Assembly: GCF_016717175.1 (NCBI RefSeq) | Contig: NZ_JADKFZ010000003.1 | Strand: one strand, 5' to 3' | Length of the DNA: 37,303 nucleotides | DNA from: Nannocystis sp. | Lineage (GTDB): Bacteria > Myxococcota_A > Polyangia > Nannocystales > Nannocystaceae | Shown: piece by piece, positions 5,497-37,303 of the stretch | Position numbering within the stretch: the first letter of the stretch is position 1 | Layout of the letters: the number at the start of each line of letters is the position of its first letter | The notes under the pieces: generated by a model | Seen by the model: the letters and a program-made list of their open reading frames with translations, nothing else | What the model was told of the DNA's origin: nothing | Databases searched by the model: none | Program-made: the position numbers and the translations under genes

Positions 5497-5539
5497 ATGT
5501 CACTCAGGCGGGCAGCTGTGGCCCGCGCTGGCGTCTTCT

Positions 5540-6271
5540 TTAGTCGCGGCTGGTCAGGGACATGACGAACTGCAGGATGTACCAGAACATCAGGGCGACC
5601 GAGGCGAACAGGGTCAGCGCGGCGGCCACGTAGGCCTGCGGGTGGTAGTGCCGCATGATGTTGGAGGTGTCGTAGAGGATGTAGCAGGCCGACAGCGCGA
5701 TCATGAAGACCACGAAGAGGATGCCGAGCTGGAACCCGAAGATGAGGCTGAAGGCGATGAGACCCAGGGCGCCGAGGCTGAGGATCATCAGGGCGCCGCG
5801 CATCCACGAGAAGTCCTTCTTGGTGACCATGACGATGCCGGTCAGGGCCGCGAAGATGGCGAGGGTGCTGACGCCGGCGGTCATGATGACGTCCGGGCCG
5901 CCGTAGGCCTGGGCGAGCAGGAGCAGCGGGATGAAGATGACGGCCTCGGCGAGCACGTAGAGGCCGAGCCCGAGGTACTGCATGGGCCGGCTGCTCGAGT
6001 GGCGGGCGAAGTAGTCGGCGATCCAGCTGACGCCCACGAACAGGAGGAGCACCAGGCCCCAGTGGGTCTGCAGCATCGACACGCCGAGCTGGCGCATGAC
6101 GGCTGTGTTGAGGAAGACGAACTCGAGGGCCACGAACGCGGCCATGGCCCCGCCGAGGTGGAGGTAGGTGCGCTCGATGAACTTGGCGCGCTCGGCGACG
6201 CTGGTGCCGGCGTCGGCGTCCTGGCCCTGTTGATTCGGGTAGTACGACTGCTGTTGCTGGTTGAAGCTCAC
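5540..6271 (-). CDS. Bax inhibitor-1/YccA (TMBIM) family membrane protein, paralog of the 27..671 gene
   Basis: N-terminal QQGQ-rich tail, then ERAKFIERTYLHLGGAMAAFVALEF (classic YccA/BI-1 N-terminal signature) and seven TM segments. Length 243 aa. Confidence 0.85.
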   Translation of the reverse strand: MSFNQQQQSYYPNQQGQDADAGTSVAERAKFIERTYLHLGGAMAAFVALEFVFLNTAVMRQLGVSMLQTHWGLVLLLFVGVSWIADYFARHSSSRPMQYLGLGLYVLAEAVIFIPLLLLAQAYGGPDVIMTAGVSTLAIFAALTGIVMVTKKDFSWMRGALMILSLGALGLIAFSLIFGFQLGILFVVFMIALSACYILYDTSNIMRHYHPQAYVAAALTLFASVALMFWYILQFVMSLTSRD

Positions 6272-9984: not shown

Positions 9985-12015
9985 ATGGTGTCACGATGCG
10001 ATCGTCTGGGTCTCGGGGTGTGGCTTGTGATCACGGGCTGCGGCGACAGCGGGGGCGGCAGCGCCAGCGCTGCGAGCACGGGTGAGCCGCCGCTGACGAC
10101 GGGGACGGTGCCGACGACGGGCCAGACGCCGACGGGCGGCGCGACGGGGACGGGGGCCGAGGGCACGGACAGCGCGGCGGGCACGAGCACGGGCGCGAGC
10201 ACGACGGTGGCCGCGACGAGCACGAGCACGGGGGCGGCGACCGGCGGCGGCGAGACGACGAGCGGTGAGCTCGTGTTCTGCGGCGACGAGCCGCCTGCGG
10301 GCTACGTCGGCGACTTCGACGCGAACTGCAAGAGCGAGCCGCAGATCGGGGTGTTCAAGCCGGTGGTGGAGTGGAAAAAGGTCGACTGGACGGTGAACCC
10401 GGGGGCGAAGGCCGTGATGATGGCGCCGATCGTGGTGTCGCTGGACGACGACAACATGGACGGGAAGATCGACGGCGACGACCTGCCGGACCTCGCGTAC
10501 GTGACCTACGGCGGGCCCCAGGACCAGCCGGGGACGGTGCGGGCGATCTCTGGCGACGGCAGCAAGGAGCTGTGGAGCGCGGTCGACGGGCTGTGCGCGA
10601 CGTCCGGGCTGGCGGCGGGGGATATCGACGGGGATGGGATGGTCGAGCTGGTGGGCATCACGCACACGCTGCAGGTCCGGGCCTTCGAGCACGACGGGGC
10701 GATCAAGTGGACGACGGGGAGCTACGTCGGGGACATGTCGTATTGCTATTCGACGCCAGCGATCGCCGACATGGACGGCGACGGCAAGCCGGAGGTGATC
10801 GCGGGGCGGGTGATCCTCGACGCGGCGGGGCTGCAGCTCGGCAAGGGCCAGTTCGGCAGCGGCGCGGCGGCCTTCGCGAGCGCGTCGTTCGCGGCCGACA
10901 TCGACGGGGATGGTGATCAGGAGGTGGTTGTGGGCAACGCGCTGTACCGGATCGACGGCAGCGCGATCTGGTCGAACGGACAGACCGACGGCTACCCGGC
11001 GGTGGCGGACTTCGACGGCGATGGCAAGCCGGAGATCGTGGTCTCGGGCTTCGGAAAGCTGCGCCTGCAGAACGGCGGCGGCGGGACGGTGTGGGATGTG
11101 GCCAACCCGGCGCAGGGCGGCGGGCCGCCGACGATCGCGGACTTCGACGGCGACGGCGAGCCGGAGATCGGGGTCGCGGGCAAGACCAACTATGTCGTGT
11201 TCGAGACCGACGGGACGGTGCTGTGGCAGCAGCCGACGCAGGACGCGAGCTCGTCGGCGACCGGATCGTCGGTCTACGACTTCGAGGGCGACGGGATCGC
11301 GGATGTGGTCTACGCCGACGAGACGACGCTGTACGTGTACTCGGGCAAGGACGGGGCGATCAAGCTGAGCTACGGCGAGCATGCGAGCGCGACGATCATC
11401 GAGTATCCGCTGGTGGTCGACGTCGACGGCGATGATCAGGTCGAGATCGTGGTGGCGCACAGCGGCTACCAGGGGCCCGAATTCGGCATCACGGTGCTGG
11501 GCGACATGGACCAGTCATGGCGACCAGGGCGCAAGATCTGGAATCAACACGCGTACAACATCACGAACGTCGACGACGCGGGCGGCATCCCGACGTTGCC
11601 CGATCCGAACTGGTTGACCTACAATAACTTCCGCTCGGGCGACCTGTCGCCGCCGGACGGGCTGGCGGCGCCGGACCTCAAGCTGCTCGCGCCGGACGCG
11701 TGCGTGAACGAGTGCCTGGGCGGCAAGCAGGCGGTGGTCTGGTATCAGCTGGCGAACGCGGGCGCGGGCGCGCTGACGGCTGGCGCGACGGTCGAGGTGT
11801 ACGGGACCAGCATGGGCGTCGAGAAGCTGCTGGCGACCAAGCAGTTCGACATGGTGCTGGCGCCGGGCGAGGTGTCGGAGGGGCAGAGCGTGCTGGTCGA
11901 CACGACGGGGCTCGACTCGCTGCGCATGGTGGCCAAGCCGGCCGAGGAAGAGTGCGTGGTCGACCCGGCGGACGAGCTCCTGCTGGTGCCGCCGTTTTGC
12001 ACGGCGCCGGGGTAG
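9985..12015 (+). CDS. FG-GAP/VCBS-repeat beta-propeller lipoprotein with a T/S/G-rich linker
   Basis: Signal and lipobox MVSRCDRLGLGVWLVITGCGD. At least seven repeats of the form hhxDhDGDGxxEhhhG (DIDGDGMVELVG, ADMDGDGKPEVIAG, ADIDGDGDQEVVVG, ADFDGDGKPEIVVSG, ADFDGDGEPEIGVAG, YDFEGDGIADVVYAD, VDVDGDDQVEIVVAH) are integrin-alpha FG-GAP-like Ca-binding repeats. Confidence 0.7.
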   Translation: MVSRCDRLGLGVWLVITGCGDSGGGSASAASTGEPPLTTGTVPTTGQTPTGGATGTGAEGTDSAAGTSTGASTTVAATSTSTGAATGGGETTSGELVFCGDEPPAGYVGDFDANCKSEPQIGVFKPVVEWKKVDWTVNPGAKAVMMAPIVVSLDDDNMDGKIDGDDLPDLAYVTYGGPQDQPGTVRAISGDGSKELWSAVDGLCATSGLAAGDIDGDGMVELVGITHTLQVRAFEHDGAIKWTTGSYVGDMSYCYSTPAIADMDGDGKPEVIAGRVILDAAGLQLGKGQFGSGAAAFASASFAADIDGDGDQEVVVGNALYRIDGSAIWSNGQTDGYPAVADFDGDGKPEIVVSGFGKLRLQNGGGGTVWDVANPAQGGGPPTIADFDGDGEPEIGVAGKTNYVVFETDGTVLWQQPTQDASSSATGSSVYDFEGDGIADVVYADETTLYVYSGKDGAIKLSYGEHASATIIEYPLVVDVDGDDQVEIVVAHSGYQGPEFGITVLGDMDQSWRPGRKIWNQHAYNITNVDDAGGIPTLPDPNWLTYNNFRSGDLSPPDGLAAPDLKLLAPDACVNECLGGKQAVVWYQLANAGAGALTAGATVEVYGTSMGVEKLLATKQFDMVLAPGEVSEGQSVLVDTTGLDSLRMVAKPAEEECVVDPADELLLVPPFCTAPG

Positions 12016-12972: not shown

Positions 12973-13009
12973 GGCACCTGTCCGCGGGGACAGGTCAGGT
13001 CGTGACTCA
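12970..13009. repeat. Single-unit GGGACAG palindromic element (cctgtcc-gcgg-ggacagg + ggtcaggtcgtgactcagg) spanning exactly from the + gene TGA to the nqrM TGA
   Basis: ggcTGAggcacCTGTCCgcggGGACAGgtcaggtcgtgacTCAggcgg: a perfect 7-bp stem hairpin, with end modules shared with the arrays at 26.9 and 31.9 kb. Confidence 0.7.
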
Positions 13010-13180
13010 GGCGGCCTTGGCGTCGCTGCACTCGGCCTTCTTGGCCGGGCCGCAGTCGCAGGACTTGTTGCCGATGCCGCCGCAGGAGCCGCGCAGGGTC
13101 TTGCCGGCGAAGATGGCCCCGATGGCCATGCCGAACATGACAGCGCCGAGGACGCCGATGGTGAGCAGGATCGTGGTCAT
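13007..13180 (-). CDS. nqrM: Na+-NQR maturation factor NqrM (DUF539), 57 aa; absent from the ORF track because it is below the size cutoff
   Basis: Manual translation of the minus strand gives MTTILLTIGVLGAVMFGMAIGAIFAGKTLRGSCGGIGNKSCDCGPAKKAECSDAKAA. It has a single TM helix followed by GK.L.GSCGG...CDC, the conserved Cys pattern of NqrM. Its ATG overlaps the apbE stop (ATGA). Confidence 0.7.
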   Translation of the reverse strand: MTTILLTIGVLGAVMFGMAIGAIFAGKTLRGSCGGIGNKSCDCGPAKKAECSDAKAA

Positions 13181-14205
13181 GGCGGGTCCAGGGTGGCCGC
13201 TTCGGCGTTGCGGTGCAAGCGGGTGAAGGCGGGGCTCTCGCGCTCGTGGAGGGTGCCGTCGGGGTCGCGGACGAGGAACAGGGCGGGGATGCTGAGCTTG
13301 GTGGCGAGCTCGAGGCCGGCGTCGGGGCCGAGGACGTTGAGGGCGGTGGCCCAGCCGTCCGCGAGCATGGCGCTCGGCTGGAGGACGCTGACCGAGGCGA
13401 GGTGGTGGGCGATCGGGCGCCCGGTCCGCGGGTCGATGGTGTGTGAGCGGCGGACGCCGTCGACCTCGTAGTAGTTGCGGTAGTCGCCGGAGGTGGCGAG
13501 GGCCTGGTCCTCGACGGCGAGCATGCGCTGGACGACGCCGCCGCTGCTGTCGGGGCGCTCGACGCCGAGGCGCCAGGGGCCGCCGTGGCCGGCGCGACCG
13601 CTGGCCATGATCTCGCCGCCGACGTCGACGAGGGTGCGGGTGAAGCCGAGCTCTCGGAGGCGGGCGGTGATGCGGTCGGCGGCGTGTCCGGGGGCGATCG
13701 CGGAGAGCTCGAGGTGGAGGGTGGCGGGGTCCTTGCGGAGCGTGCCGGTGGCGAGGTCGACGGTGAGGTGTTGCCAGCCGATGCTGGGCTTGAGGGCGTC
13801 GAGCTGGGCCTGGGTGGGCTCGGGGGCGTTGGCTTCGCGGCCCTGCGGGCCGAAGCCCCAGGCGGCGATCAGGGGGGCGACGGTGACGTCGAGGGCGCCG
13901 TCGCTGGCGGCGCTGATCTGGTTGGCGGCCTGGACGACCGCGAGGAAGCCGGGCGAGGCGGGGAAGGGGGTGGTGTCGGCGTGGGCGTTGAAGCGCGAAA
14001 TCTCCGAGTCCGGGCGCCAGGTCGACATCTGGCGGTCGACCTCGGCGAGCTCCTCGGCGATGGCGGCCTCGATCTGGCGCTGCTCGGCCTCGCTGAGCGG
14101 GGCGACCACGGTGACCTTGTAGGTCGTGCCCATGGTCGGGCCGGAGAAGGTGAGCGAGGGGGTTGCTGCTGCGTCGGCTTGCTCGAGGCCGGTGGTCGCG
14201 GCCAC
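13177..14205 (-). CDS. apbE: FAD:protein FMN transferase ApbE (flavinylates NqrB/NqrC); the N-terminal signal peptide appears to be encoded in a different frame at 14206..14300 (frameshift or assembly indel)
   Basis: The ApbE motifs TMGTTYKV, FNAHAD, GDYRNYY and HTIDPRTGRPI are present and the length is ~340 aa. The track start is a GTG. A signal-anchor ORF MSDPLRDKYGSRAKVLLPLLLVGFVALSAW begins at 14300, 17 nt after the nqrF stop, in another frame. Confidence 0.8.
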   Translation of the reverse strand: MAATTGLEQADAAATPSLTFSGPTMGTTYKVTVVAPLSEAEQRQIEAAIAEELAEVDRQMSTWRPDSEISRFNAHADTTPFPASPGFLAVVQAANQISAASDGALDVTVAPLIAAWGFGPQGREANAPEPTQAQLDALKPSIGWQHLTVDLATGTLRKDPATLHLELSAIAPGHAADRITARLRELGFTRTLVDVGGEIMASGRAGHGGPWRLGVERPDSSGGVVQRMLAVEDQALATSGDYRNYYEVDGVRRSHTIDPRTGRPIAHHLASVSVLQPSAMLADGWATALNVLGPDAGLELATKLSIPALFLVRDPDGTLHERESPAFTRLHRNAEAATLDPP

Positions 14206-14317
14206 ATGCGCCAGGCGCTGAGGGCGACGAAGCCGACGAGCAAGAGCGGGAGCAGGACCTTCGCCCTGCTCCCGTACTTGTCCCTGAGGGGATCAGACAT
14301 TGATCACGCCGGGGCGA

Positions 14318-15547
14318 TCAACCACCGAAGTCGTCCATCATGATGTTCTCGGGCTCGACGCCGAGGTCGATGAGCATCTTGGTGACGGCGACGTTCATCA
14401 TCGGCGGGCCGCAGATGTAGTACTCGCAGTCTTCGGGGGCGGGGTGGTTCTTCAGGTAGTTCTCGAACAGGACCTGGTGGATGAAGCCCTTGTAGCCGGT
14501 CCAGTTGTCCTCGGGCTTGGGCTCCGAGAGGGCGAGGTGCCACTTGAAGTTGGGGAACTCGCGCTGGATGGCGTCGAAATCCTCGACGTAGAAGGCCTCG
14601 CGCATGGAGCGGGCGCCGTACCAGAAGCTGACCTTGCGGTCGGTCTTGAGGCGCTTGAACTGGTCGAAGATGTGCGAGCGCATCGGGGCCATGCCGGCGC
14701 CGCCGCCGATGAACACCATCTCGTTCTTGGTGTCGCGGGCGAAGAACTCGCCGAAGGGGCCCGAGATGGTGACCTCGTCGCCGGGCTTCCGGCTGTAGAT
14801 GAACGAGGACATGATGCCGGGGGGGGCATCGGGGACCTTCGGGGGCGGCGTGGCGATGCGGACGTTCAGCATGATGATGCCGAACTCCTCGGGGTAGTTG
14901 GCCATCGAGTAGGCGCGGGTGACGGTCTCGGTGACGGTCGAGACGTAGCGCCAGAGGTTGTACTTGTCCCACTCGTCGCGGTACTGGTCCTCGATGATCA
15001 TGTCCGAGTACTTGGCCACGTGGGGCGGGCACTCGATCTGGATGTAGCCGCCGGCGCGGAAGGGGACGACCTCGCCCTCGGGGAGGGCCAGGACGAACTC
15101 CTTGATGAAGGTGGCGACGCCGTCGTTGGACTTGACGTGGCACTTCCACTTGCGCACGCCGAAGATCTCCGCGTGGACCTCGATCTCCATGTCCTGCTTG
15201 ACCTTGACCTGGCAGGACAGGCGGCAGCCCTCGCGGGCCTCGCCCTTGGAGATGTAGCCGAGCTCGGTGGGGTTGATGGTGCCGCCGCCGCTCTTGACGA
15301 TGACCTTGCAGACGCCGCAGGATCCCTTCCCGCCGCAAGCAGACGGGATGAAGATCTTGTTGCTCGCGAGGGTGTTGAGGAGCGTGTTGCCGGCGGGCAC
15401 GCGCAGCGAGTGCGACGGGTCGTGGTTGATACCGATCGTGACGGCCTCGCTGTTGACCAGCCGGGCCTTGGCGGCCAGGAGGACGAACACCAGGGCCAGG
15501 ATCACGAACGTGAACATGGCCACGCCGAGGATGATGATGGTGGACAT
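14318..15547 (-). CDS. nqrF: Na+-translocating NADH:quinone oxidoreductase subunit F
   Basis: Internal start [22 protein letters not shown] (TM anchor) preceded by aggagg. The 2Fe-2S ferredoxin motif is [13 protein letters not shown]...CRLSCQ. FAD/NADH-binding motifs RAYSMAN and GGGAGMAPM are present; 409 aa. The upstream 189 Arg-rich codons of the ORF-track entry are rejected. Confidence 0.9.
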
Positions 15548-15573: not shown

Positions 15574-16191
15574 CTAGAGCTGGATGCCGGAGAAGGCGAG
15601 GAAGCCGATGGCCATCAGGCCAGCGAGGATGAAGGCGATGCCGAGGCCACGCAGGGCGTGGGGGACGTTGCTGTAGCGCATCTTCTCGCGGATGGCGGCC
15701 AGGGCGATGATGGCCATGGCCCAGCCGATGCCGGAGCCGATGCCGTAGACGGCGGCCTCGCCGAAGTTGTACTCGCGCTGCTCCATGAACAGCGAGGCGC
15801 CCAGGATGGCGCAGTTGACCGCGATGAGCGGGAGGAACACGCCCAGCGCCGCGTAGAGCTTGGGGGCGAAGCGGTCGACGGCCATCTCGACGACCTGGAC
15901 CACGGCGGCGATGGTGCCGATCTGGACCAGGAAGGAGAGGAAGCTGAGGTCGACGCTGGCGAGATCGGGCGAGATCCAGGCCAGGGCGCCCTCGCGGAGC
16001 AGCGAGGCGAGGATCGCCTGGTTGAGCGGGACGCAGACGGCGAGCACGAAGATGACGGCGGCGCCGAGGCCGATCGCCGTCTCGACCTTCTTCGACACGG
16101 CGAGGAAGGAGCACATGCCCAGGAAGAAGGCCAGGGCCATGTTCTCGACGAAGATCGACTTGACCGCGATGTTGAGGAGATGCTCGAACAT
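15574..16191 (-). CDS. nqrE: Na+-NQR subunit E
   Basis: 205-aa polytopic protein [33 protein letters not shown] with conserved Cys residues at GMCSFLAV and AVNCAILGA (NqrD/E Fe-centre ligands). Confidence 0.9.
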
Positions 16192-16195
16192 ATGG

Positions 16196-16819
16196 TTACT
16201 CCTTCTCCATCTGGGCCGGCTTGGCGGTGCGCAGGATCCAGATCATGATGCCGATCAGGAAGAAGGCCGAGGGCGGCATGAGCATCATGCCGTTGGTGTA
16301 GTACCAGCCGCCGTCGTTGACGGTGCTGAAGATCTCGATGCCGAACAGCTTGCCGGAGCCGAACAGCTCGCGGATAAAGCCGATGCCCATCAGCACCATG
16401 CTGTAGCCGAGGCCGTTGCCGATGCCGTCGAGGAAGGAGATGCCGGGCTTGTTGGCCATGGCGTAGGCCTCGGCGCGGCCCATGACGATGCAGTTGGTGA
16501 TGATGAGGCCGACGAAGACCGACAGCTGCTTGCTGATCTCGAAGACGAAGGCCTTGAGGATCTGGTCGGTGACGATCACCAGCGAGGCGATCACCGTCAG
16601 CTGGACGATGATGCGGATGCTGTTGGGGATGTAGTTGCGGATCAGGCTGATCGCCAGGTTGGAGAAGGCGGTCACGACCGTGAGGCCGATCGACATGACC
16701 AGCGCCGTCTCGAGCTTGGTGGTCACGGCCAGCGCGGAGCAGATGCCGAGCACCTGCAGGGCGATGGGGTTGTTGTTGAAGAGGGGGTCGAAGAGGACGC
16801 CCTTGGTCTGCTTGTCCAT
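16196..16819 (-). CDS. nqrD: Na+-NQR subunit D
   Basis: 207 aa; [21 protein letters not shown] and [14 protein letters not shown] carry the conserved Cys residues. Paralogous to NqrE. Confidence 0.9.
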
Positions 16820-16823
16820 GGGT

Positions 16824-17609
16824 CTAGCTCCTCCCCTGGGACGCCTTGAACTTGGCCATGTAGGGGCCGAAGCCGTCCTTGCCGAACCAGAACTTCATCA
16901 GGTTGCTGACGCCGTTGCTGGTGATGGTGGCGCCGGACAGGCCGTCGACGTGGTGGGGGTCGGTCTTGGGGTCGCCGGCGCGGCCCTTGATGACGGTGAG
17001 GGCGGGCTGGCCCTTGTCGTCATAGATCTTGCGGCCGGGCCACAGGGCCTTCCACTTGGGGTTGTCGACCTCGCCGCCGAGGCCGGGGGTCTCCGCGTGG
17101 GCGTAGAAGGTGATGCCCTTGATCGTGTTGGCGTCCTTGTCGACGGCGAGGTAGCCGTAGAGCACGGACCACAGGCCGTAGCCCTCGATCGGGAGGATCA
17201 GGGTGTCGGTCTTGCCGTCCTTGAGGACGTGGTAGACGAGCGCGTTGTTGGGCAGGCGGAACACCTTGGCGGCGTTCTCGGGGGCGGTGGTGCTGGTGGC
17301 CGGGTCTTTTTGGGCGCGGCGCTGGTCGAAGGTCTCGGCCTTGATGGCCTTGTCCTCGGCGCCGGTCTTGAGGGTGATGACCTCGCGGCGGATGTTCTTG
17401 GTGAACAGGGCCGTGACCTCCTCGGGGGTGGCCTGTTGACCGGGCTTCATCAGGCCGGCGACCAGGAGGACCTGCTTCTGCTGGTCGAGGACCTTGTTCT
17501 CGGCCTGGCGCGGCCCGAGGGCGACGGCGGCCCCGGCGACGCCGATGCCGCAGATGACGCAGACGGCGACGGCGAAGCCGATCGTGTAGCCAGTACTATC
17601 GCGTGCCAT
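16824..17609 (-). CDS. nqrC: Na+-NQR subunit C (covalent FMN)
   Basis: N-terminal TM anchor. FMN-attachment motif [15 protein letters not shown] (SGAT threonine, the ApbE target). 261 aa. Confidence 0.9.
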
Positions 17610-18831
17610 AGAGAGCCATCCTCCGCTTGATGTTGGCCTGGACGATGAAGTAGTCGATGAGCGGGGCGAACATGTTCATGAACAGGATCGCCAGCATCAT
17701 GCCCTCGGGGTAGGCCGGGTTGATGACCCGGACCAGGACCACCATGAAGCCGATGCCGAAGCCGTAGAGGACCTTGCCCCACGCGGTGAAGGCCGAGGAC
17801 ACGGGGTCGGTGGCCATGAACACGGCGCCGAAGGCCCAGCCGCCGAGCACGAAGTGCCACATCGGCGGGAGGCCGAACAGGGAGTTGGTCGGTGAGCCGA
17901 TCCAGTTGAGCAGCGAGGCGGTGGCGAAGGTGCCGAGGGCGACGCCGAACATCGTCCGCCACGAGCCCACACCCGTGATGATCAGGATGGCGGCGCCGAT
18001 GAGGCAGGCGAGGGCGGAGGTCTCGCCCATCGAGCCCGCCTCGAGGCCGATGAAGGCGTTCCACCAGTCGGTGTGCGCCATCATGGCCGGGGTGTTGGCG
18101 GCGGCCTGGGCCAGGGCGGTGGCGCCGGACAGGCCGTCGGCGAGGGCGGCCGGGGTGGCGAGGTTGGCGGCGATCCAGGGGCCGTCGCCCGAGATCTGGC
18201 CGGGGTAGGCGAAGAACAGGAAGGCGCGGGCGACCAGGGCGGGGTTCAGCACGTTCATGCCGGTGCCGCCGAAGACCTCCTTGCCGATGACGACGCCGAA
18301 GCTGATGCCGAGGGCGACCTGCCACAGCGGGATCGTGGGCGGGAGGGTCAGCGGGAACAGCAGGCCGGTGACGAGGAAGCCCTCGTTGATCTCGTGCTTG
18401 CGGGCGACGGCGAAGATGACCTCGGCGTGGCCGCCGATGAGCATCGTGACCAGGTAGACCGGCAGGAAGTAGATCGCGCCGTGGATCATGCACGCGAGGA
18501 TGCTGGTCGGGTCGAAGGCGAAGCCGAGCGCGGTGTACAGCCAGGTCTGCCAGTTGGCCAGGGCGCTGGCGCCGTGGGCGATGGCGTTGTTGGCCTGGAA
18601 GCCGGTGTTGTACATGGCGAACAACACGCAGGGCAGCAGCGCGACGACGACGGTGATCATCATCCGCTTGAGGTCGATGGCGTCGCGGACGTGCGAGCTG
18701 GCCTTGGTGACGTCCTTCGGCGTGTACAGGAAGGTGTCGGTGGCCTCGTAGAGCGGGTAGAGCTTCTCGAGCTTGCCGCCCTTGTGGAACGGCTTTTCGG
18801 CCTTGTCGAGCAGGTTGCGCAGGAACTGCAT
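17596..18831 (-). CDS. nqrB: Na+-NQR subunit B (covalent FMN)
   Basis: Internal start [30 protein letters not shown]; 411 aa polytopic. The FMN motif [12 protein letters not shown] is present. It overlaps the nqrC start by 14 nt. The 5' extension in the ORF track overlaps nqrA and is rejected. Confidence 0.9.
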
Positions 18832-18836
18832 GGGTG

Positions 18837-20198
18837 TCAGCCCTCTTTCTCGATCTCGCTGAGGTTCTTGCGGAGGACGACCCCGAAGTCGGCCTTGCCG
18901 GGGTCGACGAAGGTGCAGAGCGCGAGGTCCTCCTCGTCGAGCTCGAGCGCGCCGAGCTGGATGGCGCGGTCGGTGTCGCCGACGAGGAGGGAGCGCAGGA
19001 GGAAGGTCGGGTGGATGTCGAGCGGCATGATGCGCTCGTACATGCCGATCGGGACCATGGCCCGCGGCGAGCCGTTGGTGGTGGTGGTCATGGCGAACTT
19101 CTTGCCGAAGAGCTTGCCGAGGAAGCCGAAGTAGACCGGAATGATGGAGAATTTTCCGGTGCCGGGGGCCAGCCAGCCGAGCAGCTCGCGGTGCCGACCC
19201 TCGAGCAGGGCGGAGACCTGGATGTGGTAGCGGCCGAGGAAGCCGAGGGCCTCGCCGCTGGCGTGGCGGCCCGAGAGCACCGAGCCGGAGACGACGCGGT
19301 TCTCGCCGGGCTTGAGCTCGCCCGTGGTGAGCTCGTCGAGGCTGGCGCCGAGCTGGGTGGCGAGCAGGCGGGGGCGTTCCACGACGGGGCCGGCGAGGCT
19401 GACGACGCGGCGGGAGTCGAGCTGGCCGGTGGCGAACAGGACGCCGACGGCGACGACGTCCTGGTAGCCGATGTGCCAGGCGACGCGCTCGCGGTCGACG
19501 GGCGAGAGCATGTGGATGTGGGTGCCGACGTTGCCGGCCGGGTGCAGGCCGTCGAAGTCCTCGACCTGGATGCCACTCGGAACCTCGATCTGCAGCTTGC
19601 TCGACTTGCAGAGGAAGGTCTTGGGGGCGAGCTTGCTGAGCACCGCGAGGCCGCGCTTGAAGTCGGCCTCCTTGCCCTTGAGCACGACGGCGACGTCGGC
19701 GGCGTGGGGGTTGGTGTCGACGGCGGTGACGAAGAGGGCGCGGGGGCTGCCGTCCGGCGCGGGCACGCGGGAGAAGGGGCGCATGCGCAGGGCGGTCCAC
19801 AGGCCCGACTCGAGCAGGAGGGCCTTGACGCTGTCGGCGCTGAGCTGCTCCGGGGCGGTGCCGGCGGTGGTGGAGTAGCTGGCGAAGCTGACCTGGTCGT
19901 CGGAGCCGTCGGGCTCGATGACCAGGGACAGGAAGGCCCGCTTCTCGCCGCGGTGGATGGCGGTGACGGTGCCGGCGACGGGGGCGGTGAAGCGGACGCC
20001 GGGGGCCTTGCGGTCCTCGAACAGGAGCTGGCCGCGCTTGACCTTGTCGCCGACCTTGGCCTCCATCTTGGGCTTCATGCCGATGTAGTCGGCGCCGAGG
20101 AGGGCGACGCGCTTGGCCGTGGCCGCGGGGGCGATGGTCTGCTGCGGGTCGCCGGCGAGGGGCAGGTCGAGGCCCTTGGTGATGCGGTGTGCTGCCAT
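18837..20198 (-). CDS. nqrA: Na+-NQR subunit A
   Basis: 453 aa starting [20 protein letters not shown], the typical NqrA N-terminus; first gene of the operon. Confidence 0.9.
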
Positions 20199-20330
20199 GG
20201 AGACCGGTGTCCTGAGTGCTTCAGCGGGACGTTGGGAGGCCGCTTTGCCGCAGCAAAGACCGCATCGGTACCCCGCTTTGAGGCGTGCAAATACTATGTT
20301 CTCGCCGGTTTGCGGAGACTGGGATAGCGG
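20199..20330 (-). promoter_or_regulatory. Putative nqr operon promoter/5' leader, with a CTTTGC-N4-GCAAAG palindrome (about 20247-20262) and an unusually AT-rich patch (gtgcaaatactatgttctc)
   Basis: This is the only AT-rich stretch in the region and lies immediately upstream of nqrA on its coding strand. The palindrome sits 50-65 nt upstream of the ATG. Confidence 0.3.
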
Positions 20331-20465: not shown

Positions 20466-22475
20466 CTATGCGGGCCCCCGCGGCAAGTCGGCCGCGATCG
20501 GCAATCGGTCGTAGCGCATGTTGCGGCGGGCCGGTGCGAAGCCGGCCAGGCGGATGTGGGTCTCGACCTGGGCGCTGGTCATCATGAAGTGGGCGCCGGC
20601 GGTGGAGACCACGTTCTCCTCGATCATGATCGAGCCGAAGTCGTTGGCGCCGAAGCGGAGGGCGACCTCGCCGATCTCCGGGCCGAGCGTGGGCCACGAC
20701 ACTTGCAGGTTCGGGATGTTGTCGAGGTATAGCCGGGCAAGTGCCTGGATTCGCAGGTAACGCAGGGGGCTGGTGTCGTCGCGGAGTTTGAGCCGCGTGC
20801 CTTCGGCCTGGAACGGCCAGGTGATGAAGGCGGTGAAGCCGTGGGTGTCGTCTTGCAGGCGGCGGAGGCGGTCCATGTGGAGGAGCAGCTGTTCGGAGCT
20901 CTCCTGGAAGCCGAACACCATGGTCGCGGTGGTCTTCATGCCGAGGTCGTGGGCCTCGCGCATGACGGCGAGCCACTCGTCGGCGGTGTTCTTGAACGGG
21001 GAGATGCGGGTGCGGATCTCGTCGTCGAGGATCTCGGCGCCGCCGCCGGGGAGGGAGTCCATGCCGGCGGCGCGCAGGCGGACGAGGACCTCGCGGATCG
21101 GGAGGTCGGCGAGCTCGGCGATGTGGATGATCTCGGTGGGGGAGAGGGCGTGGAGGGCGAGCTTGAAGTTCTGCTTGGTCCAGCGGAACAGGTCCTCGTA
21201 GTAGGCGAGGTCGAGGGCGGGGTTGAGGCCGCCTTGCAGGAGGATCTGGACGCCGCCGAGGGACTCGGTCTCGCGGAACTTCTCGGCCAGGGTCTCGCGG
21301 CTCAGGACGTAGCCGCCGGCGGCGCCGGGCGGCGTGTAAAAATTGCAGAACTTGCAGCGAGTTACGCAGATGTTTGTGTAGTTGACGTTGCGGTCGATGA
21401 TGTAGGTGACGACGCCGTCGGGATGGAGCATCTGGCGGCGGTGGTCGGCGGCGGCGCCGAGCGCGTTGAGGTCGGCGTTCTCGTAGAGGAAGATCCCCTC
21501 GGCGAGATCGAGGCGGCCGCCGTTTGCGGCACGGGCGAGGAGCTCGTCGACCTGCATGGCCGGACGCGGCTGACGGGCGACGCGGAGGGCCTCCGATTCG
21601 CCGCCGCCGGCGAAGCGGACGTGGATGGTGTCGTCGTCGGCGAGGCCGGGGATCTGGACCAGGCCGGCCTCGCGGGCGCGGGTGAGGAACTCGACCAGGC
21701 CCTCGCGCTCCTTGGTGCTGAGGCTGTAGCGGATCGATCGCCGGAGGTAGTTGGCGTAGGCGTTCTCCGAGAGGATGGTCGGGTCGCCCCCCTGCGAGAG
21801 GGCTGCGAGGCGCGTCTGGCGGTAGGCGCGGGCGAGGTCCTCGGCGTGCTTGAGGCCGTAGGCGCGGGCCTGCTGCAGGGCGGCGACGTGGGCCGGGGTG
21901 AGCAGGCCGGGGCGGGCGGCCCAGAACGCGAACACGAAGGGGAGGCCGGTGGTTGCCTGCCAGAGGTTGCCGAGGTCGTGGACGTGTGGACCGGAGAGGC
22001 CGAGGGCGGCGTCGCCGATGATGAGGGCGGCGTCGCGGCCGTGGACGCGGGCGAGGCCCTCGCGGTGCGGGGCCGTGACGAACTCGGGGTGGACGCCGCG
22101 GGCGGCGAGCAGGAGCTGGACGAGCAGGGCGGAGCTGCGGGAGGCGGCGTCGAGGTGAACGCGGGCGATGTCGACGAGCGGGACCTCGGCGACGAGCACG
22201 ACGGAGAGGACGGGGCCGCGGCAGCCGATCCCGACCTCGGGGACGACCTCCCACTCGGGGTGGGCCGCGTAGGCGCCGACCGGGACGAGGGCCACGTCGC
22301 ACTCACCCTGCTCGAGCTGGCGGGCGCACTCGGAGGGCAGGGCGGTGTGGACCTCGAAGAGCGGCTGGCCGTCGGGGTCGAGGAAGCGGGGGGCGCCGGG
22401 GAGGTGCTCGCCGGTCAGCGGGTGCACGAGCGGCCAGGCGTTGAGGAAGGAGACGGCGCAGACTCGCAGCGGCAT
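20466..22475 (-). CDS. mqnA: In-frame fusion of MqnA (chorismate dehydratase, futalosine pathway) with a MqnE/MqnC-family radical-SAM enzyme (aminodeoxyfutalosine synthase or cyclic dehypoxanthinyl-futalosine synthase)
   Basis: The N-terminal half MPLRVCAVSFLNAWPL...GDAALGL...TGLPFVFAFWAAR matches MqnA (PF02621) motifs. The C-terminal half MQVDELLARAANGGRLDLAEGIFLYENADLNALGAAA...VTYIIDRNVNYTNICVTRCKFCNFY carries the radical-SAM CxxxCxxC and the MqnC/MqnE N-terminal pattern. No stop codon separates the halves. The start is chosen at the internal Met (22475); the ORF-track start at 22571 would add 32 aa. Confidence 0.75.
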   Translation of the reverse strand: MPLRVCAVSFLNAWPLVHPLTGEHLPGAPRFLDPDGQPLFEVHTALPSECARQLEQGECDVALVPVGAYAAHPEWEVVPEVGIGCRGPVLSVVLVAEVPLVDIARVHLDAASRSSALLVQLLLAARGVHPEFVTAPHREGLARVHGRDAALIIGDAALGLSGPHVHDLGNLWQATTGLPFVFAFWAARPGLLTPAHVAALQQARAYGLKHAEDLARAYRQTRLAALSQGGDPTILSENAYANYLRRSIRYSLSTKEREGLVEFLTRAREAGLVQIPGLADDDTIHVRFAGGGESEALRVARQPRPAMQVDELLARAANGGRLDLAEGIFLYENADLNALGAAADHRRQMLHPDGVVTYIIDRNVNYTNICVTRCKFCNFYTPPGAAGGYVLSRETLAEKFRETESLGGVQILLQGGLNPALDLAYYEDLFRWTKQNFKLALHALSPTEIIHIAELADLPIREVLVRLRAAGMDSLPGGGAEILDDEIRTRISPFKNTADEWLAVMREAHDLGMKTTATMVFGFQESSEQLLLHMDRLRRLQDDTHGFTAFITWPFQAEGTRLKLRDDTSPLRYLRIQALARLYLDNIPNLQVSWPTLGPEIGEVALRFGANDFGSIMIEENVVSTAGAHFMMTSAQVETHIRLAGFAPARRNMRYDRLPIAADLPRGPA

Positions 22476-22620
22476 GGCGCGGCGATTGTAGAGGAGGGGC
22501 GGCGGTGCGGCGAGGCGTGCGACCGGGTGGTCGCAGGCGATCGCGGCGGGCGCCAGCAATGGCGACGGCACGCGGGGTGGCGTGCCGATGCATCGCGCAG
22601 GAGGGCCGGCGGGCCTCGGC

Positions 22621-26884: not shown

Positions 26885-26990
26885 GGCTGGCGGAAGGGAC
26901 AGGCTGGTCGAAGGGACAGGCTGGCCGAAGGGACAGACTGGCGGAAGGGACAGGCTGGCCGAAGGGACAGGCTGGCCGAAGGGTCAGGTC
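26882..26990. repeat. Six tandem copies of a 17-bp unit GGCTGGCCGAAGGGACA, bounded by the TGA of the + gene and (via ggTCAgg) the stop of the - strand reading frame
   Basis: Copies in order: ggctggcggaagggaca / ggctggtcgaagggaca / ggctggccgaagggaca / gactggcggaagggaca / ggctggccgaagggaca / ggctggccgaagggtca, then ggtcgcgggtgggg. Confidence 0.85.
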
Positions 26991-27071
26991 GCGGGTGGGG
27001 CCGGGGCGGCGCCGGGCGGGCTCGTGGGTCGATCCGCGGGCTCGCCAGCGGGCGCGGCGGGCAAGGGGAGC

Positions 27072-28367
27072 TCAGCGTCGGCGATCGTGAGGGCGGACCC
27101 CTGGGCGGCCTTCTGGTGGGCCTCCTCGGCGGCGAGGCGATGCTTGGGGTTTGCGATCGTGCCGACGACGTCGCCGCCGCAGCGGGGGCAGACCTTGGTC
27201 GTTGGGGGTGAGCGGGCCGCCGCACTTGGGCTCGGAGCAGCGGCGGTCGCGGAACAGGCGGCCGAGGCCGAGGCCGGCGAGGCCGAGGCCGGCGGCGATG
27301 ACGGCGATGTTGCTCATGCCGGGGCCCTGGTCGGGGGACATGCGGGACAGCACGCCGCCGAGCATGAGGGCGCCCATGAAGAGGACACGGCCGAGGCGGG
27401 GGGCCAGGCTGCGGTCGACCATGAAGACGGGCTTGCCGGTGTTCATGCCGGCGACGCCGCGGTCCTCGTCGCGGCGGGTCTCGGGCTCGGCCTCGGGCTC
27501 GCGCGCGAGCGGGGCGGTGAGGGCGGCGAGGGAGGGCGGGGCGGGCCAGTGGTCCTTGCCGGGGACGCCGAGCTGGACGCCGATCGGTGGGTCCATGCGC
27601 TCGATGGCGGCGAAGCTGTGGCGGAAGAAGGCGGCCTGGTTGGCCTGGAGGGCGCGGGCGAGGCGTTGGCGCTCGGCCCGGCCCTCGCCGCGGACGTGGA
27701 CCTGCACGGCGAGCAGGAAGCAGATGGCCTGGGGCGGCAGGCTGCCGAGGCGCAGGGGGACGCGGCGGTTCTGGACGGCGCCGGTGCTGCTGCGGCTGGT
27801 GAAGCGGAGGGCGGCGTCGGCGGTGAGCAGGCCGAAGCCGAGGTAGACGGCGCTGACGTCGATGCGGGGGTCGTAGGCGTCGCTGACGGGGAGGTTGTGG
27901 GCGAGGCGATGGGCGTGGCTGACGACGCGGGCGCAGGCGGCGACGAGGCTGGCGGGGTCGGCCATGGCGCTGGCCTCGACGCCGACCTCGAGGCCAGCTC
28001 CCGGACCGGGGCCACCCTTGAAGCTGGCGAGCCACACGACCAGCTCCTGGGCGCCTCGCGGGGTGACCGGCTTGCCGATGACCTCGCCGCGGCGGGCGGG
28101 CTCGGCGTCGTAGATGCGGACGCCGACGCGGAGGTCGTCGGGGAGGCCGGCGTAGGCGCAGAGCCGGAGGAGGAGGCGGCGGACGCTGCTGTCGCCGCCG
28201 CCCCAGGGGTCGGGGAAGAAGCGCGGGCTCGGCTCGACGAGCAGGCTGGTGGCGAGCGGGCCGGGGCCGAGCGCGACGACCAGCGCCCGCAGCTGCTCCT
28301 GCAACCAGCGGCGATCGTCCTGCGGCGGGAGCATGAGCCCATCGTCGCCCTGTTCCGGCCCGGCCAT
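27072..28367 (-). CDS. hypothetical membrane-associated protein with a C-terminal split C4 zinc ribbon; an apparent -1 frameshift in a C5 homopolymer (about 27204-27208) truncates it, and the corrected ORF would end at about 26984
   Basis: N-terminus MAGPEQGDDGLMLPP.., ~300-aa soluble region, hydrophobic segment MSNIAVIAAGLGLAGLGLG, then CSEPKC. The shifted frame continues PPTTKVCPRCGGDVVGTIANPKHRLAAEEAHQKAAQGSALTIADAE...APAPPAT*, completing C-x4-C-x10-C-x2-C. Confidence 0.45.
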   Translation of the reverse strand: MAGPEQGDDGLMLPPQDDRRWLQEQLRALVVALGPGPLATSLLVEPSPRFFPDPWGGGDSSVRRLLLRLCAYAGLPDDLRVGVRIYDAEPARRGEVIGKPVTPRGAQELVVWLASFKGGPGPGAGLEVGVEASAMADPASLVAACARVVSHAHRLAHNLPVSDAYDPRIDVSAVYLGFGLLTADAALRFTSRSSTGAVQNRRVPLRLGSLPPQAICFLLAVQVHVRGEGRAERQRLARALQANQAAFFRHSFAAIERMDPPIGVQLGVPGKDHWPAPPSLAALTAPLAREPEAEPETRRDEDRGVAGMNTGKPVFMVDRSLAPRLGRVLFMGALMLGGVLSRMSPDQGPGMSNIAVIAAGLGLAGLGLGRLFRDRRCSEPKCGGPLTPNDQGLPPLRRRRRRHDRKPQASPRRRGGPPEGRPGVRPHDRRR

Positions 28368-35535: not shown

Positions 35536-37303
35536 TGCGTCGGTCAAAACCGACAGAGAGGAGAGAATGAGAGAGTCTTACAGTGAAGGTCTAGCGAGCC
35601 ACACTGGCCCCGAGTCATGCGGAGGCGATCGCAAGGTCGTCGGCGAAGCGTTGACAGGGGCCACGCGGGCTGGGACATGGAGCTCCGAAATCGGAAATTC
35701 GGGTGGCGGACGCCGTGGACGCAAGCGGAACGCAACACCTGACGCGCCGTTAGAGCGAGGAACGTCAGGCCCCGCGGAGTCGAAGACCCCAAGCACGCGT
35801 GGAACCTCTTTGTACGGGAACCGAGAGATCCTGTGGTGGCCCACGAGATGGTCGTGGGCGGAGATCAGGAAGCCGAGGAGGCGAAGCTGATCATGGTGGG
35901 CCACAGGAAGTCGGACAGGGTCGTAGTACCGGAGAAGCGGCCGAACAACGCCTCAGAGGCGGCGGAGGCCGTGGAGGGAAGGATCCTGACCAAGGGGAAC
36001 ACGGACGAGCAAGCCGCGTCCCGGACACAGCGCCGGATTGAAGACGCGTCAAGCAAGCTCGACCGTGTACGAGAAGCGGCCAGAAGGGACAAGGAGCAGA
36101 AGTTCACAGCGCTGCTGCACCACGTGGACGAGACGGCGCTCTTGCGGGCGTTCCGAACGATGAACCGCAACGCCACAGCTGGCGTCGATGGCGTGACGTG
36201 GGCGCAGTACGAGGATGGGGTGGAAGAACGGTTGCAGGAGTTGTGCTCGCGGATCCACCGCGGAGCATACCGACCGCAGCCGTCGCGGCGGACGTACATC
36301 CCGAAGGCGGATGGGACGCAGCGAGCGCTGGGCATCGCGGCGCTCGAGGACAAGATCGTGCAGAAGGCCGTGGCTGCGGTGCTGAACGCGATCTATGAGG
36401 AGGATTTCCTCGGGTTCTCGTACGGGTTTCGGCCCGGACGATCACAGCATGACGCACTGGATGCCCTCACCGTGGCGATCCAGACGAAGAAGGTGAACTA
36501 CATCCTGGACGCGGACATCCGTGGGTACTTCGATACCATCGACCACGCGACGCTCCTTCAGCACGTCCAGCATCGAGTGCATGACCCGCGGGTGCTCAGG
36601 CTCATCCAGCGGTGGCTGAGGGCCGGGGTCATGGACGAGGGGCGATGGAAGGCGAGTGAGGCAGGGACGCCTCAGGGCGCGACGATCTCACCGCTGCTGG
36701 CGAATATCTACCTCCACCACGTACTCGATCAGTGGGTGTGTGCGTGGCGGAAGATGCAAGCTCGCGGCGAGGTGATCATCGTGCGCTACGCCGACGATTT
36801 CATCGTCGGCTTTCAGTACGAGCAGGACGCGAAGGCGTTCCAGGAGGCTCTGCAAGCGCGCCTGCGCGAGCACCTGCTGGAGCTGCACCCCGACAAGACG
36901 CGGCTGATCGAGTTTGGGCGCTACGCGCTCGAGCGACGAGCAGAGCGTGGCGAGGGGAAGCCACAGACCTTCAACTTCCTCGGCTTCACGCACATCTGTG
37001 CGCCAGGCGAGAAGGGGTTTTGGGTCAAGCGCATCCCGATGAAGGAGAGAGTCCGTGCGAAGCTGCGGAAGCTGAAAGAGGCTCTCCGGCGCGTCATGCA
37101 CCGACCCGTCTCCGTCGTGGGCGCGTGGTTGAAGAAGGTTCTGCAGGGGTACTTCGCCTACTATTCCGTGCCCGGAGCCCAGGGGACGCTCTCGAAGATG
37201 CGTCACCAACTGGGCTACCTCTGGGTCAGGGTGCTGCGTCGACGCGACCAAAACCGGACCCTGAACTGGGAACGGATGCGGCGGATCGTCAAGGCATGGC
37301 TCC
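35536..37303 (+). mobile_element. Group II intron, 3'-partial; the 5' boundary is uncertain (a GTGCG candidate lies at about 35535, and the true boundary may be up to ~250 nt further upstream)
   Basis: Intron-encoded RT/maturase ORF from 35893 to the window end, with a non-coding structured leader upstream. GTGCG at ~35535 fits the GUGYG 5' consensus. A 22-bp direct repeat GCTTG(A/C)GTGGGGCAACGCGGGG lies at ~35268 and ~35321 between dtd and the intron. Confidence 0.5.
35893..37303 (+). CDS. Group II intron-encoded reverse transcriptase/maturase (3'-partial; continues beyond the window)
   Basis: Manual translation gives MVGHRKSDRVVVPEKRPNN..ALLRAFRTMNRNATAGVDGVTW..YRPQPSRRTYIPKADGTQRALGIAALEDKIVQKAV (RT0-2)..FRPGRSQHDAL (RT3)..GTPQGATISPLLANIYLH (RT4)..RYADDFIV (RT5 YADD)..LGFTH (RT7)..domain X WLKKVLQGYFAYYSVPG. 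A ggagg RBS lies 8 nt upstream. It is absent from the ORF track because there is no stop in the window. Confidence 0.85.
   Translation, partial: MVGHRKSDRVVVPEKRPNNASEAAEAVEGRILTKGNTDEQAASRTQRRIEDASSKLDRVREAARRDKEQKFTALLHHVDETALLRAFRTMNRNATAGVDGVTWAQYEDGVEERLQELCSRIHRGAYRPQPSRRTYIPKADGTQRALGIAALEDKIVQKAVAAVLNAIYEEDFLGFSYGFRPGRSQHDALDALTVAIQTKKVNYILDADIRGYFDTIDHATLLQHVQHRVHDPRVLRLIQRWLRAGVMDEGRWKASEAGTPQGATISPLLANIYLHHVLDQWVCAWRKMQARGEVIIVRYADDFIVGFQYEQDAKAFQEALQARLREHLLELHPDKTRLIEFGRYALERRAERGEGKPQTFNFLGFTHICAPGEKGFWVKRIPMKERVRAKLRKLKEALRRVMHRPVSVVGAWLKKVLQGYFAYYSVPGAQGTLSKMRHQLGYLWVRVLRRRDQNRTLNWERMRRIVKAWL

Follow-up and report, generated by a model that had tools for sequence, protein, structure and literature searches.

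The sequence analysed here (the window) is a stretch of 37,303 nt with a GC content of 70.7% from a MAG of Nannocystis (Myxococcota), whose relatives are Nannocystis and Nannocystaceae MAGs. Its minus strand carries an nqrABCDEF-apbE-nqrM operon, in which all six nqr genes and nqrM are unbroken (see table for the features). The NqrF protein has the same length and start as NqrF of two related loci (L001 and L002), with a dN/dS of 0.09. The first-pass annotation, which had been made from the letters of the DNA alone, reported SGAT flavinylation motifs in NqrB and NqrC, and a motif search found both of them. NqrM is matched by Pfam family PF04400 with 22.2 bits at a cut-off of 22. The identical NqrM protein was retrieved by exact look-up from L092-L096 and also from short contigs of the runs SRR11674041 and SRR11674002, which end before the 5' end of apbE.

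Table. Coordinates of the features in the window
Feature	Position	Strand	Description
nqrM	13007..13180	-	57 aa, intact; 4-nt overlap with the apbE stop
apbE 3' part (frame B)	13177..14190	-	Gly38 to Pro374 and stop; whole ApbE / FAD:protein FMN transferase domain
False frame-A continuation	13869..14190	-	ASSKPTQQQPPRSPSP..., P/S/R-rich, stop at 13869; out-of-frame reading of the ApbE domain
Missing-base site	14191..14192		GG on the + strand (CC coding) versus GGG (CCC) in relatives
apbE 5' part (frame A)	14191..14300	-	codons 1-36 and two bases of codon 37; signal anchor/signal peptide MSDPLRDKYGSRAKVLLPLLLVGFVALSAWRMWPRPP
GTG start of deposited product	14203..14205	-	start of the 342-aa MBK9753890.1 / WP_293251452.1 (exact look-up)
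nqrF	14318..15547	-	409 aa, intact; stop TGA at 14320-14318
nqrA-nqrE	15574..20226	-	each single-frame (ORFs, frame plot); synteny with L002 and L005
Second frameshift	26984-28367, indel at 27203-27204	-	one extra base (cgtTgggg on the + strand)

Between nqrF and nqrM, apbE is spread over two reading frames. Frame A opens with an ATG at 14300, 17 nt past the nqrF stop, as a signal-anchor ORF in which a basic segment (RDKYGSRAK) precedes VLLPLLLVGFVALSAW and which lacks a lipobox Cys. Both this ORF and its decay into P/S/R-rich junk had been pointed out before, and both were confirmed on the minus strand. Past codon 37, the continuation of frame A yielded neither a Pfam match nor a GC3 coding signal. 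Frame B, offset by -1 from frame A, has no stop from 14292 until its end at 13177. It was correctly described as the frame that holds the ApbE motifs and has only a GTG start: the match to PF02424 lies in this frame (E 1.9e-85, 287 bits versus a cut-off of 25.6, positions 1-266 of the 266 of the profile), and its sole start codon is the GTG at 14205. Judged by its reading frame, this GTG is probably not a genuine start. The five residues that follow it (the AATTG region) are WPRPP codons read out of frame, and the 'AATT' residues that had been counted as part of ApbE are such an out-of-frame reading. In a GC3 frame plot, the coding signal passes from frame A into frame B at 14184/14187. Nowhere else in the window does it so clearly abandon an ORF well short of the stop, here by 318 nt.

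A protein search with the 342-aa frame-B product returned thousands of ApbE proteins. The closest of them are 364-376 aa long and start with the frame-A peptide, which runs straight into the frame-B sequence and reads ...SAWRMWPRPPGLEQAD... (P0001, for example, has ...VALSAWRMWPRPPGLEQADATTAPSLTFSGPTMGTTYKV across the junction). Relatives down to about 70% identity have one single-frame protein, typically of 374 aa; the anchor segment is kept down to about 68% identity (P0019, P0020). At the level of DNA, the loci L001-L010, L089, L092, L097 and L098 all have a single-frame apbE. Within the gene, variation is highest in the linker between anchor and domain. Since the frame-A peptide of the window is 100% identical to residues 1-37 of P0001, P0003, P0004 and P0252, the two-frame arrangement is not due to chance.

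The cause was located by the nucleotide alignment with apbE orthologues that the first-pass annotation had proposed as a check. Compared to the DNA of its relatives, the window is short by exactly one base. Its coding strand reads CCA CC- GGC CTC GAG, the relatives read CC(A/G) CCC GGC CTC GAG, and the CCC is the codon for Pro37. The lack of one base in this three-base run moves the catalytic domain out of the frame of the anchor. Accordingly, the view that one gene had been broken by a +/-1 indel between signal and domain was right, but the indel had been placed near 14206-14212. The actual site lies 15-20 nt downstream of that position, just outside the interval 14195-14300 to which the observation had been assigned. 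A direct gap listing against L092 gives ccgg-tgg for the window and ccggGtgg for L092. In blastn alignments, the missing base is the only gap in 3541 nt against the JGI contig L089 (97.0% identity) and in 3721 nt against L001 (95.9%), with a later megablast run placing a few further gaps. No further indel or stop was found in the apbE of the window. Restoring one base at the site puts anchor and ApbE domain in one frame, and the repaired protein is identical to P0252 from L092 at 373 of 374 residues, the difference being P97S. An export segment in the frame of the domain, as is found in NQR-associated ApbE, is present in all orthologues and absent from the window as deposited. The dN/dS of apbE is 0.13 between the window and L092 and 0.31-0.55 between the window and more distant relatives, values of low statistical power; pairs without the window gave 0.28-0.45. 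Because these ranges are alike, we see no relaxed selection on the window's apbE, within the low power of the comparison.

The conspecific L092 (GCA_964267895.1, CAXWJW010000043.1) shares 99.27% identity with the window across 21,128 nt and has an intact apbE (P0252). It carries private indels of its own. An extra base in nqrF (at window position 14607) results in an NqrF of 347 instead of 409 aa, extra bases in nqrB (window 18038 and 18283) split this gene into 283 + 144 aa, and an FG-GAP lipoprotein gene lacks two bases at its start (window 10019 and 10055). In the coordinates of L092, these indels lie at about 9694, 6262, 6016, 14281 and 14246. The window is unbroken at all five sites and agrees with L005 and L006 at those in the lipoprotein gene. 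The window was initially suspected of being in error at 10019 and 10055, but both indels turned out to be private to L092. Mutually exclusive gene-breaking indels in conserved respiratory genes, at only 0.7% substitutions, form the pattern of consensus errors and not of selection. The sole cluster of small indels between the window and L092 is intergenic (window 5519-5540, flanked by two convergent or divergent genes) and may be a short repeat or variable region.

Frameshifts in the window were searched for by a GC3 frame plot, an ORF-end test and direct gap listing. A tblastn approach with the stop-to-stop ORFs of the relatives was dropped, since it was swamped by conservation in non-coding frames (70% GC) and by gene junctions. 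A weaker flag in the GC3 frame plot, at about 27186, where the signal moves from frame -1 to -0, proved to be a second frameshift. Here, the gene of a zinc-ribbon protein (CxxxxC...CxxC) is interrupted by an extra T at 27203, and the two halves of the ribbon (...RCSEPKCGGPLTPN and KVCPRCGGDVVGTI...) are found in two frames. The joined protein matches the 460-aa P0121 from the Logan run assemblies SRR11674041 and SRR11673999. Two Logan contigs (L090 and L091) align to the window at 99.8% identity with one gap, the extra T of the window, and encode the intact 460-aa protein. This protein is conserved in Nannocystaceae and has a C-terminal zinc ribbon and a TM segment; the NCBI annotation gives a 431-aa form of it (MBK9753902.1, IPO88_10425). 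Taken together, the private indels in the window assembly and in L092 demonstrate that indel artefacts are common in such data.

We also surveyed the sequences closest to the window's apbE. The 90% cluster has 13 members, and 10 of its 12 full-length proteins are intact with 374 aa; these come from ENA, JGI and Logan contigs and from L092. The other two full-length proteins are from NCBI records named 'MAG: Nannocystis sp.'. Contig names of the types k141_ and NODE_..._cov_ suggest short-read assemblers (MEGAHIT- or SPAdes-style). Over about 155 nt around the site, L092 and L097 (JGI 3300050184) have exactly the haplotype of the window but with an intact gene, and the same haplotype with one substitution is likewise intact in L098 (ENA). 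Scanning metagenomes with a pattern that spans the site gave a single match, the JGI contig L089 with its intact gene, and no independent contig with the deletion. Searching proteins with the first 186 aa of the corrected ApbE did not find any same-strain fragments. The complete corrected ApbE (374 aa), the NqrF of the window, P0241 and P0242 were also looked up as exact sequences, which returned no record or no DNA.

One of these proteins deserves a closer description. P0242 (MBK7830017.1, 373 aa) belongs to another NCBI Nannocystis MAG, where it lies on a 7,091-nt contig, is available as protein only, and reads WPRPPASSRPTQQPPSLTF. The stretch WPRPPASSRPTQQPPSLTFSG of this protein follows frame A for about ten codons and then returns to frame B, so that the linker at residues 38-48 is ASSRPTQQPP as compared to GLEQADxxxTP elsewhere. 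From its protein sequence, P0242 looks like the product of the same 1-nt deletion and of a 2-nt deletion that restores the frame about 30 nt further downstream. Both deletions could be artefacts at the edge of the gene's most variable stretch, in which consensus callers are confused by mixed strains; alternatively, the frameshift and its compensation could be real.

The 342-aa product is deposited as 'MAG: FAD:protein FMN transferase [Nannocystis sp.]' on a contig of 621,778 nt. Contigs of 0.6 Mb, obtained for a high-GC myxobacterium of roughly 9 Mb in a complex community, suggest that long reads were used. To judge from the style of its accessions (MBK... / IPO88), the MAG of the window may belong to an activated-sludge Nanopore project, the one cited next, and the record is probably of Nanopore origin. 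In that project, Nannocystis and Nannocystaceae MAGs were recovered from activated sludge by assembling Nanopore reads with CANU, after which the consensus was polished with Racon, twice with medaka and once more with Racon using Illumina reads (Singleton et al. 2021; PMC8012365). The supplement of this study lists one Nannocystis MAG at apparently about 12-15x, if the column is interpreted correctly. A later study describes Nanopore assemblies as needing short-read polishing against indels (Sereika et al. 2022; PMC9262707).

Against this background we infer, with good confidence, that what breaks apbE is an indel error left uncorrected when the consensus of a MAG, probably built from long reads, was made, and the frame split is most likely not a real biological feature. 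Of the three causes offered by the first-pass annotation, assembly error is the best supported one, given intact near-identical sequences and private indels on both sides, whereas a programmed frameshift did not hold up, as the arrangement is not conserved and has no slippery site. The lesion resembles known consensus errors of Nanopore MAGs in being a single-base indel in a short run of the same base, in splitting a conserved gene in high-GC DNA, in having other indels nearby in the window assembly and in L092, and in being intact in other data sets. Three points count against an artefact. The affected run has just 3 bases and is not the classic long-homopolymer site of typical long-read indel errors, the comparison genome L092 is itself error-prone, and P0242, if its deletions are real, would mean that the 1-nt deletion does occur in nature. 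The second of the causes, a genuine and recent 1-nt deletion that uncouples the export signal from ApbE in a strain or subpopulation, appears unlikely to us. In its favour, the lesion is present in the deposited sequence, the linker in which it falls is variable and so tolerant of change, and the apparent combination of the same deletion with a frame-restoring one in P0242 is what compensation is expected to look like. It is mainly because of P0242 that we leave some room for this explanation. On the other hand, with L092 intact at 99.27% identity the event would have to be very recent or to have recurred on different backgrounds. A 3-base run is not hypermutable. Moreover, apbE shows no other lesions and no rise in dN/dS, and the six nqr genes and nqrM are intact. 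The 27203 frameshift of the same assembly is contradicted by Logan contigs, L092 has its five private indels, and both deviant ApbE sequences are from NCBI MAG records and none from ENA, JGI or Logan contigs. Should the deletion be real, the flavin transferase would be null or mislocalised and the Na+-NQR unflavinylated and inactive, unless a paralogue from elsewhere in the genome of roughly 9-10 Mb took its place. A more specific version, to which we assign an even lower probability, regards the deletion as a real recurrent or shared polymorphism of activated-sludge Nannocystis that has been repaired in the lineage of MBK7830017.1 and not in that of the window. Were this true, the window lineage would have an unflavinylated, inactive Na+-NQR or a leaderless ApbE, and the two sequences together would document, in nature, both a frameshift and its compensation in a gene accessory to a respiratory complex.

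The remaining explanations accept the two frames as functional. According to one, they are two genes, a small membrane peptide in frame A and a leaderless cytoplasmic ApbE starting from GTG 14205. NCBI does annotate the 342-aa product as a normal protein, and leaderless ApbE-family proteins exist elsewhere. But residues 1-37 of frame A are the N-terminus of a single ApbE protein in all relatives, with an anchor that is conserved in the clade down to about 68% identity, frame A has neither coding signal nor family match past codon 37, and the residues behind the GTG are codons of WPRPP read in the wrong frame. We consider this highly improbable. Programmed recoding is the least probable of all and has almost no credit with us. 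It would require a -1 ribosomal shift at CCA-CCG-G, or RNA polymerase slippage, to fuse the anchor to ApbE and thereby to regulate the exported amounts. As in the programmed -1 frameshifting of dnaX and of IS element transposases, the frames overlap and the downstream one is -1, and re-reading one base at CCG|G indeed gives the orthologous ...PRPPGLEQ.... Unlike in these systems, the junction (cga cca ccg gcc) contains no slippery heptamer of the type X XXY YYZ, nor a homopolymer long enough for slippage. Furthermore, the two-frame layout is not conserved: every orthologue with DNA is one base longer and in frame, including the one that is 99.27% identical. The first-pass annotation had itself made such conservation in orthologues the mark of a programmed event, and since the orthologues are single-frame, recoding is refuted by its own standard.

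If the break is a consensus error, as we prefer, there would be nothing unusual about apbE in the cell. The gene would be read in one frame into a 374-aa FAD:protein FMN transferase, and the deposited break would have arisen when one base of the CCC (coding strand) was dropped in the assembly consensus. By analogy to known systems, the N-terminal hydrophobic segment would insert or export ApbE to the periplasmic side, where the enzyme would move FMN from FAD onto the SGAT threonines of NqrB and NqrC, while NqrM would help in assembly. The locus is indeed like the Na+-NQR operons with an ApbE/Ftp (PF02424) of, for example, Vibrio cholerae, with a full ApbE domain encoded between nqrF and nqrM, SGAT targets in NqrB and NqrC, and an N-terminal export/anchor segment in the relatives and in the window after one-base repair. 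It differs from them only as deposited, with export segment and domain in different frames. The ApbE anchor of this clade has no lipobox Cys, whereas many ApbE proteins are annotated as lipoproteins (JGI names them 'thiamine biosynthesis lipoprotein').

In biological terms the outcome is minor, namely a standard Na+-NQR cluster with its maturation genes. It does matter for the annotation, in which two RefSeq/GenBank proteins are mis-modelled: MBK9753890.1 / WP_293251452.1 (342 aa) is an N-terminally truncated ApbE without its export signal, and MBK9753902.1 (431 aa) carries a false C-terminus. Conclusions on localisation, NQR function or pseudogenes drawn from this MAG would be misleading.

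Three further observations concern the surroundings of apbE. The nqrF-apbE junction differs between relatives. A 17-nt spacer (14301-14317) separates the two genes in the window, and the same spacer is found in L001 and L089; in L005-L008 the apbE ATG overlaps the nqrF stop (TGATG; L005 9995-10003), an overlap that suggests translational coupling of nqrF and apbE in these loci. Directly upstream of nqrA, a 701-aa fusion protein is encoded (window 20466-22571, minus strand). Its orthologues have VitK2_biosynth, Radical_SAM and CofH_C domains (futalosine-pathway menaquinone synthesis), and it is located beside the NQR operon also in L002, L005 and L092. Finally, a group II intron occupies the end of the window (35572-37303, plus strand). 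Its D1-D4 RNA at 35572-35789 matches RF02005 over the full model with 172 bits and is followed by the intron-encoded ORF of a reverse transcriptase/maturase (RVT_1, E 1e-39; weak GIIM), which is cut off by the end of the window.
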